Below the pieces are notes generated by a model, which saw only the letters and a program-made list of their open reading frames with translations, did not search any database and was not told the DNA's origin. Source: Azolla caroliniana (Eukaryota > Plantae > Polypodiophyta). Taken from it: a DNA stretch of 64,000 nt. The DNA lies in the NCBI GenBank assembly GCA_043228905.1, contig JBHGNT010000018.1:9486001-9550000 (forward strand). The letters are read 5' to 3'. The position numbers and the translations under genes are program-made. Below, one piece after another: positions 3,407 through 13,548 of the stretch; within the stretch, counting starts at the first letter, position 1; every line of letters begins with the position of its first letter.

Positions 3407-3609
3407 TGTTGGGAAAATTGGTCCCTCCGGATGGAGAGATAAGTTAAATAGTCCATATTATGTATGAGTATAAATACACTTGGGGCAAATAATTATATAA
3501 GTGATGAATCATTAGGGTGCATTGGAGTGTAGTGTTTGTATAAGAGAGAGAGAGAGAATATAACTCCTTTGTAACTGTTTGTGGACGAGGAAGAACTCAA
3601 GGTTGTTGC

Positions 3610-4058
3610 TGTTGTCCGCCGGAATAGTAACCGACGGACAAGAGCACAGGAATACAGAATAGTATAATATTGTAACGCATGTAACGGTTCACGCGGGAAG
3701 CGTGAACGACTAAAAGACCTTGCGTATATAAAGGGCAGAAAACCTCTGATAGAGGGAGCGTGTAATTTTGAATGTAAGAGACGTATCGTAATAGAATTCT
3801 ATCTTCTTTGATATCTGTGTGTAGCTACGACTAATCTACTGTGTGTCTGTAACACCTGAGAGCGTAGGAGTAAGTAACGGCGTGTGTATTAGCCCACTGT
3901 CAAAGGAGCTCGGTTATAGCCGTCTCCCTTATACGCTGCTAGGTTACGGGGAACATCCCACTAAGTATTACGCACAGACGCTACCATTCGTTGTCACACA
4001 GTTACTTGGAGGTCTAGGTCGAAGGACTGACCGTAGATCGTGATCCTAATCGGTAACA
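3610..4058 (+). repeat. 5' LTR of the first Ty3 element
   Basis: Direct repeat of 12897-13344; TATA gtatataaag at ~3724. Confidence 0.93.
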
Positions 4059-4062
4059 CTTT

Positions 4063-4076
4063 TGGCACGCTTGGTG
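4063..4076 (+). promoter_or_regulatory. Primer-binding site, tRNA-Arg type
   Basis: TGGCACGCTTGGTG 4 nt after the LTR; matches the recalled plant tRNA-Arg(UCU) 3' end ...CACCGAGCGUGCCA with one G-U pair. Confidence 0.75.
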
Positions 4077-4092
4077 ATCTGTGTCTTCTCAC

Positions 4093-7000
4093 AGACGAAC
4101 AACGACGAATGGATGTTTAGCCGCAGACGCCCCAGAGAACCAACACGACCAGACTGGCCAATCACAAGGTCCATCACACGCCAGGCAGAGGAACGCGCAC
4201 GGGAGAAGCCTCGCCTCAGCGACCTCAACACTACCTGTCGTGATCACAAAGGTGATTTCCCGCTCTCCAAATACCTCGACGATACGCGGGGATCACGCTC
4301 ACCACAGCAGCACTGTGGTCTTTCCTAGCCCGCCGTAGCCCCCAGCATGGCCTTTGCCTATCCCTGCTTTAACGGCGAAACCGACGCAGCAACTCACATT
4401 CGCCTGTTCCTCAATGTCTGGAATGCAAACCACATGGCACAAAGCCTTTCTGAGGCGATAGCGCACCAGTCCAAAATGATGGAGTTCGGGTTAACATTGG
4501 ATGGGCAAGCGGCGTTTTGGCATTCCTAGATGGATCTGCCAGCAATCACGACCTTCGACCAGTTGTAGTCCGCCTTTTTGCGGTTCTTCCATCGGAGGGT
4601 TCCACAACGCGAAATCCTCGGACAGTTCTACACAATTAAGCAGCTTCTGACCGAGACAATTGTAGACTTCAACTTATGTTTCCAAAATTTACGGCGAAAA
4701 CTAGAACGGGGCCCCGCGGAGGACGAGGCTCGAGAGACATTTCTGGCGGCATTACGCCGATCCATACAGACAACACTCAACAAAAATAGCGTGAAAGGGG
4801 AGACAACGGATATGGTCATTGAACAGCGCTACAGCTCGAGTTGGACGACGAAGAGGAAAGGTTTTCTGTGTCATTACGACAAGCGTTACCTCAGGACGAG
4901 GAACGACAGTTTCATCAAGCAATCCAGTGCACGATTTGCTTGAACTCAAGGCATTCCGTAGTGGAGTGCAACATGCGAATCCACTGCCCAATCTGTCACT
5001 CGAAGGCTCACACAGTCGAACAGTGTGAATAGAATATGCTGAATAGAGCCGCTCCCACAATACGCAGCATGGACACACAATGTCCCCCACGCTGTCCTGA
5101 ACAAAGGAGGCAAGAAGACTGACCACGGTATATGGATCGCAACCCACGTGACGACCGGCACTACCGGAATAACCGGAATCACAATGATTCCGAGGAAGAC
5201 GAGCCAGAGGATGAGGACTACCGTGGTTCCCCTCGATATGCTAAAGGGGGCCGAGGCTATGAGAATCACCGGCCGACAAACAAACGTGGCGGCTTCAATG
5301 GATCTCGTGGGAAGCAGCGACAATATCGGGACCATCGACGATATGACGAAAGCACGGACGAAGAACGGCATCAAGAACCACGCCGGGCCCAACAACAACC
5401 ACCGTGTACGCTCCAAAAAACGAGGCCGGACTGTGAGGAGCAAGTCGCACCGGGGGATCGGCACGCACCACCAGGCGCCGAGAAGGGTGAATCGAGCATC
5501 CATTGTTTCGTTTGTCAGCAGCCCAGACATTATGCCGCGCAATGCCCAGTACGCAAGGGCAAGGGGCCCGCCGTCAATACGATTATGATAGAAGTGCAGC
5601 AAGTCACGACACGCCAGCAAACGAAAATGGCCGATTGGGCCGCGCAAGATGAGATACGACAACAAGCCCATGCATGGGTTGAAAAAACAAACGCGACAAA
5701 TACGGAATGCATGCGGAAGGAGTCTGCGAAAACAATGGGGCTAGTGGAGGATGAAAGATCGACCCCGGACCCCATTTGGCAAGCACTGGCAGGCTGCGAG
5801 ATAACGTTAACCATGGAGAAGCTGCTGCAACTAGTCCCACGCTTCCGCCAGACCATGGAAGAACGGGTGACGGGCATACCCGGGGCGAGCGTCGCTACGA
5901 ATCTCACGGACATTAGCGACGGACCTTCGGTAGTGGATCACCACAACCCGACTATTACATTGATATTACACGGCCAGGAAATCCCAAGCTGCATAATCGA
6001 TGGCGGCTCAGGCGTTAATGTAATTAGCGCGAAAACATGCGAGCAGTTAGGTATTTCAGAATGGGAGGCTTGCTCGTTCTGGCTCCTTATGGAAGATACC
6101 CGCTCAGTACGACCATTGGGGTTGATACGCAAGGTCGGCATTATCGTGGGAGGACATCGCTTCAGCATCTCGGCGGTAGTCCTCAGCCTGGACGCCCCAG
6201 GGGCATACCCTATGCTGCTGGGCAGACCGTGGCTTCGTGCAACGAATATCAAGCAGAGCTGGCAACACAAGTGTATCAGTTTTCGACACGGACGCACCAA
6301 GGTTCGCGTACCTATGGAGGAAAGGGCGACACAATCCAAGGGTATAACACCATTATACCCGGAAGATATAAATATGCTAGCCGGGGTGGAGGATGCAAAA
6401 TTAGAGGCATACCTAGACGAGCACCCTTGGATTATTCCGCTGTTCGAAATTGACCTCATCGCAACTGCGACAGAATATGCCACGACCACTACTCTCCAAG
6501 ACGAGACTTACAAACCAAACCTGGAGTCAATCTTGGAACTAAGCAGAGCACGCACAACATTCGAGAGGGAAATGGAAATTTCACGGCGAGTCACCGCCTC
6601 CGCCCTAGAAGAAGTAAACGTGGGTACGGCGTCAGAACCCCGTTTTCTCTCCATTGCAAAAGAATTAAGGCTGGATCAGAGAGACGCGATGATCGAACTA
6701 CTCAAGAAATATAAAGATGTGTTTGCCTGGGTTCATGAGGACATGAAGGGGTTAGATCCGAAGTTCTATCAATATAAGATCAATTTAGCAATCGACGCAA
6801 AACCGGTGCAGCAACGTCGCTACTGCATGAACCCGAACTACGCGACCCGCGTAAAGGAAGAAATTGACAAACTCCTAAAGGCGGGATTTATATGGCTAAT
6901 TAGACAAGCCGCATGGTTAAGTCTGATAGTAGTCGTTCCAAAGAAAAATGGCAAAATACGGGTATGCGTGGATTACCGAAAATTAAATGCCGTAACCATT

Positions 7001-9780
7001 ACAGACGTCATAATGTAAAAATAGGCTGTATGTAACCGTTTTTTTTTTTCGTAACAGTTACATATAGCCTATTTTTACATTATGATACAAGTGGGGCCGT
7101 CCACTTACGCTGCGGGTTCTCCGGCTTTGTCCTGTCCGGGGGTGAATGTGTTAGGTGGCGTAGGTAAGGTTTAAGGCGGAACCCATTCACCTTTTGTCGT
7201 AAGACTTCCCCGGCCAGTGTGCCTAGTTGGAACGTGCCTTGTTCCGCTCCTATTATCCAGTACGGTCTTGTCCAACGGAATCGTAACTTCCCTGGCATAT
7301 GGCCCATGCAGGTTTGGAAAACCAGTACCGCTCGACCGACCGCGAAATCCTTTTCCCGTTACCATTCACTGATAGTGTACTGGACGCCGTCGCAGGACAT
7401 GACATGTACAATTTTTTAGATGGCTTCAGTGGCTATAACTAGGTACACATGCATCCCGATGACCAAGAGAAGACGACATTTGTCACGGATTGGGGAGTCT
7501 ATGTGGCAGTCGTCATGAAGTTCGGGCTAAAAACGGCGCCGGCAACATTTCAACGGACAATCACGGAGATCCTTGGGGAATATATTCCAGCGTTGATGCA
7601 AGTTTTTTTAGACGATTTTGCGGTATATGGGAAAAAAACCGACCATTTTATGCATCTGCAACTGTGCTTGGAACATTGCCGCACCGCACGCTTAAGCTTG
7701 AATCCCGCGAAATGTGCCTTCGACGTGACTAGCGGGACGCTCCTAGGCCATATAGTCAGCAAAGAGGGAATAGCGGTCAATCCAAACAAGATCTCCGCGA
7801 TTACTCAAGACAAAACTCCGACAAACGCGAAATCACTCAACCGGTTTTTAGGCCAAATACGATGGTATAGTCGGATGATATGATATTTGGTGGACTTCGC
7901 CACGCCGTTACATGCTGCCGTGCATCAGACTCCCTTCCAATGGACTGCAACGGAGGACAAGGCCTATGAGGCGCTCAAGATAATGCTCACACAGGCACCT
8001 GTCGTATAGCCACCAGTTTGGGCGAAGCCATTCCACGTGTTCGTAGATGCCTCGGACATAGCAATAGGAAGTGTGCTAATGCAGCTCACCGAACTGAATT
8101 GGTACCGGCCAACCTACTACGCTAGTCGCAAATTATCAACAACGGAGTGTAACTATTCCACAACGCAGCTTGAGGCATTAGGGATGATCTATAGTATTAA
8201 TAAATTCCGGCATTATCTGTTGGGGAGGAAATTCACGTTCCACGTGGATCATTCGACATTGTTGTATTTGGTGGAGAAACAAGCACAGATGGGGAAATTG
8301 GCGCGATGGATGTTGCTGCTTCAAGAATTCGATTTTGTAATTCAGCACCGACCGGGTACGCAACACGTAGTGGCAAATTTTTTGAGTAGACTCGATAATG
8401 GAGAAACAGTACAGAAGGATGACGATGACTTTCCAGACGTAGACATTCTGCGGGTAGCAGCACTAGCAGAAAGAATGGAAACGACCTTTCCGAACCGGTG
8501 GCTTATGGAAATGACACAATTACGCACGGGCGAGAAGAAACGATTAGCCGTCCAGAGCCGTAACTTCTGCCTAGTAGAAGGAATTTTATATCACAAAGGT
8601 AGTGATGGCATTTGGCGACGTAGTGCACATCAGGATGAGAAAGAAACAGTCTTACGGGAGGCTCACTGCGGCACGGCAGGCGGCCATTACGCGGGCGATG
8701 TTACGGCTCGAAAAATATGGCAAGCAAGCCTATGGTGGTTGACTACACAGAAGGATGCATACGAGTATTGCATGAAGTGCAATTTGTGTCAATGGATGGG
8801 CCAGTCCACGGAGGGCGCAAGGATGCCTCACCAGCTCGTATTACCGTTAGATCTCTTCCAAAAGTGGGGATTGGATTTTGTGGGCCCCTTCACACCGATG
8901 GTGGCCCGTACGGGCAATAAATACATATTGGTAGCAACGGATTACTGCACCAAGTGGGTAGAAGCAAAGGCACTACGAGAGAATACGACGACCGTCACAT
9001 CGAGATTCCTTTATGAACACATCTGGTGTCGGTTCGGCTGTCCGATTGAGCTTATCAGTGACCAGGGGAGCCACTTTCTCAATACGGTCGTTCGAGAACT
9101 AACGCATCATTACGCCGTAGTCCACAAGAAAAATACGCCATATTATCCACAGGCGAATGGGTTAGCGGAATCCACCAACAAGACGTTGCAGACCATCTTA
9201 AAGAAAATCGTCAATGAAAATAGAACGGAGTGGGATACCAAATTACAGAGTGCGTTATGGGCGTACAAAACCAGCTACAAAACAAGCATACAGTCAACAC
9301 CGTTTCGACTAGCGTTTGGGTTGGAGGCCGTGATGCCGGTAGAGTTTCAGATACCCAGTTTACGGATTCAAGTACGGGACCGACTGTTGGAAGCCAAGTC
9401 GGAGGAGGTACGGCTCCACTAGCTACTCAAACTCGGTGAGAAACGCGTACATAGCATGGTGGTGTTGGAGCAGGAACAACGAGGCGTAAAGCGTTTGTGG
9501 ATCGACATCGGAATGCATGGGAAAGGAATTTCACGGTCGGTCAAGCGGTACTGGTTTTCCAAACCCGCATGGGCCATATGCCAGGGAAGTTACGATTCCG
9601 CTGGACATGCCCGTACTGGATAATAGGAGCGGAACAAGGCACGTTCCAACTAGGCACGCTGGCCGGGGAAGTCTTATGAAAAAAGGTGAATGGGTTCCGC
9701 CTTAATCCTTAGATGGGCCCTATGCCACCTAACCCATTCACCGTCTGACAGGACAAACTCGGAGAACCTGCGGCGTAAGT
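4093..9780 (+). pseudogene. Disrupted gag-pol polyprotein (gag, CCHC knuckles, protease, RT, RNase H, integrase)
   Basis: CFVCQQPRHYAAQC zinc knuckle, IIDGGSG protease, VCVDYRKLN and FLDD RT motifs, VDAS RNase H, HHCC and GLDF..DQG..AE integrase; several stops, frameshifts and an inverted insertion at 7008-7350. Confidence 0.92.
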
Positions 9781-10025
9781 GGACGGGCCACTTGTATCAT
9801 AATGTAAAAATAGGTTGTATGTAACCGTTACGAAACGAAAAAAAAAGGAAAAGAAGAAGAAGAGAAGATAACGACGCTATTAAAAAAGGACTGAATGCAT
9901 GCACAGACTTCTAGACAAAGAACACGTGGCACCACGATGGTTCACCGCCCAATGAACCTTAGGCCACAAAAAGAAGGAAATAGAAGGTCTTTTGCACAAA
10001 ATAGAAATCCACCTCCTAACCCTCA

Positions 10026-12849
10026 GTGCTCTCATCGCTCCCTTCCCTCACCTTCTCCTCCATCCTAGCACAGAGATCAAACCTACCGCCACCACCAATC
10101 TTCTCCCCACGAGCTTACTCTGACTATGCCGATATTTATCTCTATCGCCTTACGTCGATGGCTCGTGGAGAAACACCTGGATGGGCACATCAGGGTCGTA
10201 GAGGCACCTCCACACCCGGATGCATTGGACATCGCCAGGAAGCTCAATATCGACACGATCACCAACTCCATCCGGAAAAAGTTGGACCTGTCATCCCTAG
10301 GTGAGAGGCATTTCAAAATCCCCCCTACGGAGTCGCTGTAGAGGTATTTCGGCCTGTATTCCTCTTCCGCCAAGGCCTATAGAAAGAAGGAGATCCCGGA
10401 TCCCTTTTTCCGTGAAGTCGCCAAGTTCCTATTAGAGGTCGGATGCGTACACATAAACGCATATGGGATGCCCAAGCAGAAGGCAGGTATCATTATTGAT
10501 ACCTTTGAAGGGCGTGCGGTCGACTGGGGAGTCATCACGGGGCCGACGTTAAGGGAAGGCTTGCACGCATATCAAGGAGGCAAGAAGCTCAGGCCTATCA
10601 TACAACAGTACCTGACGATACTATTCCCACCCCGAGGCCTGCCGGCATCGTAGCCCAACAGACCCACGCCATCGCCCCGATCCACGAAGCGCAGGTTAGC
10701 GGAGTTAGCCGCCATAGAGTGGGAGGATGAACCCCAACCTGCCCAACCGGACACACGGACAACGCCGGAAGAGCAGGCGGCGCGCTCCGCGGAAGCGGCA
10801 CCAGAGCCAGGCGCCGAACCACGACAAGATAGCCCTAGGCCGAAACGACGAAGACTAGACAAGAAAGATGGGTGGGGATTAGTTAAAGACATACCCACGG
10901 CGGCAGAGACAACGACGGAAGGCGATGACTCCACAGCCATGGAGCCCAACACCACCTTCGAAATAATCCGGGAGCCACGGCCGATCATTACGGCCCAGTC
11001 ACAACGAGGGAAAGCCATATTGACGGCGGAAAGCGAGGTTTTGGGATATCCGGATATCCTGGACACGGCCCATGAATTCAACGCACTCTTGCAGTACGGA
11101 ACCTCTTTTGAGCTCATAGAATTCTTGGCAACGCAATAGATAAAGGCCTCACACTGAATGGCCGAGGAGCACGCGGAGCGCCAGATGATCGAGCGCGCCT
11201 TAACACAAATGGCGGAGAGCGACGATGAGGACCAGTTAGCCAGAGTCGGCAGACGGAGGAACGCCGGGATACGCCGAATGGGGATGGAACTACCCCCATT
11301 GAACACGGCCCTAGTTCAAGTCCATAGGGAACTGGCAAAGGTCAGCACGAGCGCTAAGGAGATGGCCATTAAAAATAAGAATGTCTGGAAGAAGGTGAAA
11401 CTGACCCAAGCCGAGCTGCAAAAAGCCAACGAATGCATCGTGGAGTTGGAAACTAACGCGGCTATGGCACAACAGGCAACTCCACCACCAAACCACGCCA
11501 TCGAAGCCTTGAAGGAAGAGATTGAGGCTCAGACCGCCATTGCCTCAAAAGCAAAAAGGGCTGTACACTAGCGGAATCAGAAATTGACCACCTCCGTGCT
11601 GAAATTCGCCAGTCCTCAAACAGGGAAAAGGATATCCGGGCCAACGGCTGAAAGGCAGTAAAAACCCTTGAAGAGGAACTCACTACGGAGACAACACAAC
11701 ACACCCGGACAAAAGTAAAATTACGGGAGGAAGCGAAGAAATCGGGAGCGGCAATGGCGGGTCTCCATGCCTTATTGGAGAAAAAGAAGGCTTGGTTCGA
11801 CGAGCAGCTGATGGGCAAACATGAAAGAAGGCATCAACTCGAAATCTGCCTAAACAATGAAATGGGGAAATTAGAAGAACTACATGTGAAGGAATCCCAG
11901 CTGTGGGCGGGTATGAAGAGCACGTATGAAGAAGTGACGACAGTTAGTTAGCAGGAAATCACAAACCTCAAGAAGTCGGTGGAAGAAGCACGCAACCGTT
12001 GCCAGGCCATCACAAACAACGTGCGTATCCTTCTACAAACCAATCGGCAGAGGTTTACAATGCAATTGAAAATGGCGTTGGACAAAGGATGGATGGCATG
12101 GGCAGCCCCAAGCGGCGGAATTGCACACGTATCATGCGGACTGGGAGAATCGGAGAAAAGACGGCTGAGGCTTCTATAAACTCAATGAGGAGAGCATTGC
12201 GGCAGTACGTGAGGACCTAGCGCAGGACTATCATGTGCTAGCGGACCAACATTTCAAAGAACTCGCGTAGCTATTAGATGATTTTGGTGAAAGTTAGGAG
12301 GATATGTTTCACCAGATCACGCAAGCCGGCAACCCACGAACGAATGAGGGACCCATCGCGACACCAATTCCGGATACTGCCGAAGAAGAGGAACCTCAGG
12401 CCAGGTCACTAGAAATCACAACTACGGTGAAAAGCGCAGAATGGCGAGCGGAGTCCCCCACCATACCAGACAACGTAACCTCTGCCCAAGAGGAACCCCA
12501 TCTACCAGAGCATACGCTATCGGCCGACCACACGGAGAACGTTGCGAACCAAGCGGAACCGCAAAACCACTCCCTAGTGCGTACAATGACGACCGACACC
12601 ACGGAGGAAGTGACGGATACGACGGAGCCGTGGACGACTGCAAGCCCGCCGTCGGCTGAGCCCAACCCCCTTGCCCACGAAGAGCCCATAGAACCCGGGC
12701 CACCCACACAGGACGATCGCGACACCATGAGAAGCCCTCCCGACCAAATAGGGGAACCACACCACGATGCACATACGGGCCCTACGCCGTCTCCGGACGC
12801 TGACACCGTAGCAGAGCCAAACATCAGGGGCATTTTGGAAGAAGAGTAA
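10026..12849 (+). pseudogene. Extra sense-strand ORF after pol (coiled-coil middle, Pro/Thr/Glu-rich end), fragmented
   Basis: Successive + strand ORF pieces (10026, 10126, 10468, 10939, 11158, 11754, 12304) ending at TAA 12849 just before the 3' LTR. Confidence 0.65.
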
Positions 12850-12896
12850 AGGGATGGGTCCGACGTGCCATGGCACTGTCCCACAAGCGTGCCAGG

Positions 12897-13344
12897 TGTT
12901 GTCTGCCGGAATAGTAATCGAGGACAAGAGTGCAGGAATACGGAATAGTATAATATTGTAACGCATGTAATGGTTCACGCGGGAAGAGTGAACGTCTAAA
13001 AGACCCTGCGTATATAAAGGGCAGAAAACCTCTGATAGAGGGAGCGTGTAATTTTGAATGTAAGAGACGTATCGTAATTGAATTCTATCTTCTCTGATAT
13101 TTGAGTGTAGCTACGGCTAATCTACTGTGTGTCTGTAACACCTGAGAGCGTAGGAGTAAGTAATGGTGTGTATATTAGCCCATTGTCAAAGGAGCTCGGT
13201 TGTAGCCGTCTCCCTTATACGCTGCTAGGTTACGAGCAACATCCCACTAAGTATTACGCATAGACGCTACCATTCATTGTCACAGAATCACTTGGAGGTC
13301 TAGGTCGAAGGACTGACCGTAGACCATGTTCCTAGTCGGTAACA
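12897..13344 (+). repeat. 3' LTR of the first Ty3 element
   Basis: Direct repeat of 3610-4058, followed by TSD GTTGC. Confidence 0.93.
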
Positions 13345-13548
13345 GTTGCCTTGTTGCTTATTATTGTACATTCCTCTTACCTTGGTCACTTGCTCTGAGT
13401 TTGTGGACTCTCGTGTTTTTTCCCTTTCAATGTTTCCACGTTAAAAATACTTGTGTCTCTGTGTTGTGCATCGTTTACGTTATTTAAGTTTTCTGCCATT
13501 CTCGTTTGTGCTTGAAAATCAATTGTGACCGATCCCATATAACAATTT

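Follow-up and report, generated by a model that had tools for sequence, protein, structure and literature searches.

A Ty3/Gypsy lineage in Azolla caroliniana lacks a polypurine tract (PPT), and its sequences make it likely that a host tRNA-Arg(UCU), bound to a minus-strand site 2 nt from the 3' long terminal repeat (LTR), primes the plus strand. To our knowledge, priming from a PPT is the rule for second-strand synthesis in LTR elements and the known priming exceptions all concern the first strand. Our verdict is that the inverted tRNA site described here is a real, lineage-wide feature and probably a new priming variant inside a known class of element.

The element in the window and its 3' LTR junction

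The window, which is the whole stretch of 64,000 nucleotides that was analysed, contains an LTR retrotransposon at 3610-13344 with LTRs of 449 and 448 bp that are 92.9% identical and have TG..CA ends. These ends and the target-site duplication (TSD) GTTGC on both sides bear out normal integration, as a sequence-only reading of this DNA had claimed. The element encodes RT-RH-INT in Gypsy order, and the window copy is broken. Its parts are:

3605-3609, plus strand: left TSD, GTTGC
3610-4058, plus strand: 5' LTR, 449 bp, TG..CA
4063-4076, plus strand: minus-strand primer-binding site (PBS), whose 14 nt can pair with the 3' terminus of host tRNA-Arg(UCU)
4349-9820, plus strand: gag-PR-RT-RH-INT region, limits approximate, broken by stops, frameshifts and an insertion
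7009-7350, minus strand: inverted piece like the 3' end of INT (9519-9843), inserted in the RT region, incidental
10127-12849, plus strand: 3' extra ORF on the sense strand, broken in the window copy, start approximate
12851-12863, minus strand: second segment of the inverted site, where the minus strand is complementary to the T-loop and 5' T-stem of tRNA-Arg(UCU)
12864-12877, no strand: hairpin insert of 13-14 nt at the tRNA 58/59 boundary, its stem covarying across families
12878-12894, minus strand: core of the inverted site, which can pair with the final 18 nt of mature tRNA-Arg(UCU) at 17 positions and leaves one tRNA C without a partner
12895-12896, plus strand: 2-nt spacer GG, with which the plus strand is predicted to begin
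12897-13344, plus strand: 3' LTR, 448 bp
13345-13349, plus strand: right TSD, GTTGC

The order before the 3' LTR is GTCCCACAAGCGTGCCA (12878-12894), GG (12895-12896) and the LTR. The sequence-only reading had described this (12878-12896) as an inverted tRNA-Arg site plus GG in place of a purine run, with an 11-nt match to the PBS at 4063, and we read both as it did. The 2-nt spacing that it gave as normal is right for the inverted site and wrong for the true PBS, TGGCACGCTTGGTG, which begins at 4063, 4 nt from the 5' LTR. The palindrome that it reported at 12865-12876 is present; it is not a palindrome alone, being the hairpin of a bipartite site whose segment complementary to the T-loop had been missed. 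A purine-rich run at approximately 12836-12858, which codes for the final residues of the 3' extra ORF, ends about 38 nt 5' of the 3' LTR, in agreement with the distance of about 40 nt given before. The window's other LTR elements carry purine tracts next to their 3' LTRs, also as noted earlier. From 14000 to 64000 the window is filled by Copia and chromodomain-bearing Gypsy elements, nested in one another, whose purine tracts are of the ordinary kind.

A sister copy has an intact ORF of 1952 aa with gag, a zinc knuckle, RT, RH and INT. In this ORF we found no match to an extra RNase H or a chromodomain, and the RH match was single (E up to 0.1). The 3' extra ORF is 979 aa long in sister copy L149 (from 8527 onward). 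Its first 491 aa gave no Pfam match, and its matches in the ESM Atlas were all below 0.9, weak and to plant hypothetical proteins. Inverted INT-end sequence resembling the piece at 7009-7350 also lies within the LTR of a non-coding family (L114, ~7280-7380).

Conservation and structure of the inverted site

The inverted site is not a chance or single-copy feature; it is lineage-wide. Its core adjoined the LTR in all 30 nearest copies, retrieved with a query that included the motif itself (mismatches: none in 16, one in 7, two in 6; a deletion in 1). When copies were picked by RT-RH-INT protein alone, 19 of 20 had the motif, the 3' LTR of the twentieth lying beyond the stretch. The distance to the 3' LTR was fixed at 2 nt in 30/30 and 19/20 of these copies, a point that the sequence-only reading had proposed to check, and the one-off rearrangement with normal PPTs elsewhere that it named as the contrary case was not what the other copies showed. 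Subfamilies of 74-83% nucleotide identity retain the motif, and the lineage includes copies with identical LTRs. In the 523-Mb genome the exact pattern had 1,423 matches with the LTR start TGTTA and 490 with TGTTGTCC, and the reversed-pattern control had 0 in each case. The pattern is also carried by 115 stretches in metagenome assemblies, whose source organisms may be close kin. Viral contigs gave no match by protein or by pattern. Contigs from four DNA runs, one labelled as another organism, span the motif and include no informative joints.

We compared the site with the host tRNA-Arg(UCU) genes, whose 3' ends are GTCCCACCAAGCGTG and variants. The tRNA-end pattern gave 45 matches, of which 31 were read and 14, clustered on C22, were left out. 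Pairing with tRNA-Arg(UCU) covers 14 nt at the 5' PBS and, at the inverted site, 17 of the 18 terminal nt; the C left out there sits between the T-stem and the acceptor stem. Among the 31 matches read, none was a tRNA gene with a 1-nt-shorter end, though the pattern permitted it. By its sequence, the inverted site is a match to the tRNA itself that goes beyond the element's own PBS. At C11:693798-703402, C22:1428856-1504823 and C4:19551136-19587072, tRNA-Arg(UCU) genes form tandem clusters that include several variants of the acceptor stem and were possibly amplified alongside the elements that use them.

Moving upstream from the LTR, the site has the core, a hairpin of 13-14 nt and a segment resembling the tRNA T-stem and T-loop. 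We grouped 181 junctions, 82 from the organism's own genome and 99 from metagenomes (the latter selected by a pattern that includes the core), by LTR start into 44 clusters, which are not independent. The T-loop segment matched at 8 or more of 11 nt in 38 of the 44 clusters (shuffles, ~7%), and the gap between segment and core was 13-14 nt in 42. The search patterns contained neither the T-loop segment nor the left arm of the hairpin; they did include the length of the spacer and some of the right arm. Hairpin stems were GTGC/GCAC in 21 clusters, GTAC/GTAC in 7, GGAC/GTCC in 1 and GTGT/ACAC in 1, and 12 of the 44 had a stem with one mismatch or wobble. The predicted stem changes on both sides, that is, it covaries across families. 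A duplex calculation, approximate because it used RNA parameters, split the pairing with the tRNA into three blocks and left the hairpin outside it as a loop. Sorted by wobble direction, the changes in the T-loop segment were 18 G>A, 12 T>C, 5 C>T and 1 A>G, with no difference per site; in the same test stem mismatches were 5 versus 3. No polypurine tract was seen directly 5' of the 3' LTR in the 44 clusters. A hairpin and a short T-loop-complementary word also follow some 5' PBSs, inconsistently (window 4077-4100 and sister PBS regions).

A sister clade, at 63-71% identity in RH-INT, was read from elements whose TSDs are clean and whose orientation was verified. Their 5' PBS, TGGCGACCACG, matches tRNA-Arg(UCG), and their 3' LTR site is still Arg(UCU). 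In our tree this clade is a single branch (100/100) of a 13-row lineage (100/100), and families with an Arg(UCU) PBS branch outside it at a weak node. The position of the Arg(UCG)-PBS clade, with its Arg(UCU) site, within the lineage suggests a change of primer for the minus strand, with no change of the site for the plus strand.

Retained tRNA copies and the proposed plus-strand priming

CCA joins tRNA post-transcriptionally, and tRNA copies ending in CCA are a record of primers copied by RT. A search at U3 ends gave nine matches: eight rows that represent five independent tRNA-Arg(UCU) events, and one degenerate motif (L170), which was dropped as a retained primer. Another candidate, L056, was rejected as a tRNA gene with genomic CCA behind it. 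Mismatches were scored against host tRNA genes plus CCA. Event (a) is 57 nt long with 0 mismatches and the spacer TG, occurs three times at a single locus, on Arg(UCG)-clade LTRs, and, because it is preceded by the 3' region of a non-coding family, is a template-switch product and not a plain outer end. Event (b), 18 nt and exact with the spacer TG, is located 5' of the 5' LTR of an Arg(UCG)-clade element that has no TSD. Event (c), also 18 nt and exact, with the spacer AG, occurs twice between tandem 5' LTRs of an element that has a TSD, LTRs 97-99.8% identical and a motif of its own unlike the retained piece. Event (d), 63 nt with 3 mismatches and the spacer GG, belongs to a related family whose LTR start is similar to that of the window family, and event (e), 16 nt with 1 mismatch and the spacer GG, has no pol nearby.

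In all five events the tRNA is joined through the family's own 2-nt spacer and has its 18-nt form; the 17-nt form of the element is seen in none. Four of the five were oriented through RH-INT or extra-ORF homology, and in two of the five the LTRs belong to the Arg(UCG)-PBS clade. None was found on LTRs of the window's own family. At another tandem junction in the family of event (c), the minus-strand primer was kept and U3 starts AG, at the base after CCA. As read from these junctions, the U3 events are rare failures that show attachment at the right base, not how often the tRNA primes.

Copies at U5 ends match the PBS. They are of Arg(UCU) in L031, L045, L046, L048, L049 and L050, and of Arg(UCG) on the Arg(UCG)-PBS elements L304, L305 and L307 (3/6 matches). 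At U3 ends we found Arg(UCG) in 0/2: a search for Arg(UCG)-CCA at most 3 nt from TGTT gave two matches, both ordinary PBSs; this control is smaller still than the small number of U3 events. The 17-nt element form without the hairpin had six matches (five internal or decayed, one unclear) with a pattern that catches part of the cases. Blunt two-LTR junctions had 11 matches versus 19 in the control, and none was a clean junction. L038 and L060 are presumed U5-end copies with an orientation that lacks ORF support. The lineage's RT often copied the minus-strand tRNA far beyond 18 nt (L045, L046, L048, L352). L045 has a whole tRNA at the PBS that rejoins the internal region through short homology, and the joint in L046 and L048 leaves out most of the element. 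At L307:92-113 two U5 ends meet head to head, and each side has kept tRNA-Arg(UCG) sequence.

Priming of the plus strand by a second tRNA-Arg, the first proposal of the sequence-only reading, gained support from the family-wide conservation, the complementarity to host tRNA beyond the element's own PBS and the tRNA copies at U3 ends. In the mechanism we propose, a first tRNA, Arg(UCU) or Arg(UCG) depending on the clade, would prime the minus strand at the 5' PBS, and RNase H would remove the RNA after strand transfer. The bared minus-strand DNA would then be bound by a second tRNA, Arg(UCU), through its last 18 nt (one C bulged), its T-loop and its T-stem, and the DNA hairpin of 13-14 nt would be looped out of this pairing. 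RT would extend the CCA end through the 2-nt spacer first and the LTR next. RNase H would normally take the primer off, and integrase would trim the 2 nt, a step proposed because the TSDs are clean. Where primer removal failed, RT would copy the tRNA and either halt at 18 nt, as expected from m1A58, or continue. In retroviruses the start of the plus strand sets the U3 end, and m1A58 halts RT at 18 nt. A more speculative guess is that the bulge and the hairpin split the RNA:DNA hybrid into short pieces and spare the primer from early RNase H. The constant 1-nt gap and the mismatches in some cores are imperfect for a primer site, and the role we give them is a guess. Taken as a whole, this abundant and recently mobile plant Gypsy lineage and its non-coding partners probably replicate with two tRNAs and no PPT, with a three-way junction that shields tRNA-Arg(UCU) from RNase H and with primers that may belong to different isoacceptors and evolve independently.

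The main rival is an RNA primer of the element's own, which the sequence-only reading had also raised: plus-sense RNA of the motif would escape RNase H and act as an unusual PPT, with tRNA binding being occasional. Such an RNA primer would have the same end base and the same LTR boundary, and PPTs are described as having no strict consensus (PMC3185511, in part). We consider it unlikely, as the last 17 nt before the LTR are just 48% purine in the 44 clusters, the retained primers are of the tRNA form in 5/5 events with no clear 17-nt form among the six matches, and the conserved T-loop-complementary segment would be left unexplained. A variant of tRNA priming, in which the usual primer is an 18-nt 3' tRNA fragment and not the whole tRNA, fits the two events of exactly 18 nt and the one of 16 nt. 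Events of 57 and 63 nt speak against it, as does the pairing of the second segment with tRNA positions absent from an 18-mer, and a stop at 18 nt is equally given by m1A58, as in retroviruses; we regard this variant as highly improbable.

The sequence-only reading had also suggested that the motif pairs with the 5' PBS, either in RNA circularisation or in self-priming, taken here as that of the minus strand. In the window family this pairing covers 11-12 nt at -29.0 kcal/mol, and long-range 5'-3' pairing is known for Ty1 (PMC3592414, in part). The Arg(UCG)-PBS clade nevertheless retains the Arg(UCU) site with a score of just -10.7 kcal/mol, which argues against pairing of the motif with its own PBS. 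Furthermore, the U5-end tRNA copies show a tRNA-primed minus strand, and the plus strand would be left without a primer. As a general function this pairing is largely refuted and very unlikely; it may have a side role in Arg(UCU)-PBS families. There is hardly any chance that the motif is nothing but a captured, inert LTR-PBS junction and that the purine-rich run at ~12836-12858, about 40 nt upstream, is the real PPT. That run is present in the window, but it is not conserved, and several families are T-rich at the same place. Priming upstream would shift the LTR boundary, yet 5' LTRs begin TG right behind the TSD, and an inert motif would not retain a constant spacer, or a stem that covaries, across LTRs that are unrelated.

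Classification and comparison with known systems

Our best reading is a non-chromovirus Ty3/Gypsy lineage that no named clade fits cleanly: it has the RT-RH-INT order, no chromodomain, TG..CA LTRs, a TSD and a tRNA PBS. The nearest named proteins are from Adiantum, Riccia, Cryptomeria, Taxus and angiosperms, at 35-54% identity. In a tree whose rows did not include labelled clade references, the 13-row lineage (100/100) falls in a 26-row clade (100/99) with proteins from Adiantum, Cryptomeria and Riccia, separate from the Malus, Rosa, Prunus and Rhodiola rows. A search with the distant protein P0013 returned members of the same clade only and found no lineage boundary. Non-coding families of ~2.3-2.5 kb (L127, L186, L193, L215, L231) bear the same inverted site and are probably non-autonomous partners; some non-coding families have motif, LTR and PBS in a row as tandem arrays with shared LTRs.

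The lineage resembles Athila in having no chromodomain, a 5-bp TSD, a length of ~10 kb, a 3' extra ORF and no extra RNase H, and differs in its Arg(UCU) or Arg(UCG) PBS, the PBS of Athila being for tRNA-Asp/Asn (84%) (PMC6317226, in part). It shares a tRNA-Arg PBS with Ogre and TatIII, but the Tat elements (TatI-III, Ogre, Retand) have an additional archaeal-type RNase H that it lacks (same source, in part). Phygy has a 4-bp NCGN TSD and a tRNA-Trp PBS, unlike the 5-bp TSD and Arg PBS found here, and Selgy has a 4-bp TSD, a tRNA-Ala PBS and a length of ~5 kb, none of which applies to this lineage (PMC6317226, in part).

The sequence-only reading knew of no described LTR family with this arrangement; likewise, our search of the literature outside subscription journals, Repbase reports and the Tca3 primary paper found no description of an inverted PBS replacing the PPT. 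The accessible parts of a fission-yeast paper and a Candida review do not describe one. If true, tRNA priming of the plus strand would be a third priming mode, and the lineage concerned has about two thousand junctions in the genome. Both strands would then be open to control by 3' tRNA fragments. It would become testable how RT can start from a tRNA on DNA and how RNase H spares that tRNA and later removes it. Annotation and orientation based on PPTs can err for such elements.

Canonical LTR replication uses a PBS-bound tRNA for the minus strand and a PPT for the plus strand (PMC7197481, PMC10886601, each in part). The lineage shares TG..CA LTRs, a 5-bp TSD, a tRNA-primed minus strand and gag-PR-RT-RH-INT with canonical plant Copia and Gypsy elements, and differs from them in having an inverted tRNA site for the PPT and tRNA copies at U3 ends. 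Drosophila Gypsy also has two tRNA-binding sites, one by each genome end; its 3' site is on RNA, pairs with the anticodon and T stems, is not needed for cDNA synthesis and accompanies a PPT (PMC1635307, in part), whereas the site described here is on minus-strand DNA, binds the CCA end and borders on the LTR. As in the extended PBS of Ty1 and the bipartite PBS of Ty3, the acceptor end and further segments hold the primer tRNA, but those sites prime the minus strand on RNA (PMC3592414, in part), and the plus strand of Ty1 and Ty3 starts from a PPT (PMC3185511, in part). Self-priming in Tf1/sushi and Tcn1 is likewise a lineage-wide departure from standard priming. Those elements removed the tRNA from minus-strand priming and, in Tf1, kept the PPT, whereas the lineage described here would have done the opposite, for the plus strand (PMC10085805, PMC6317226, each in part).
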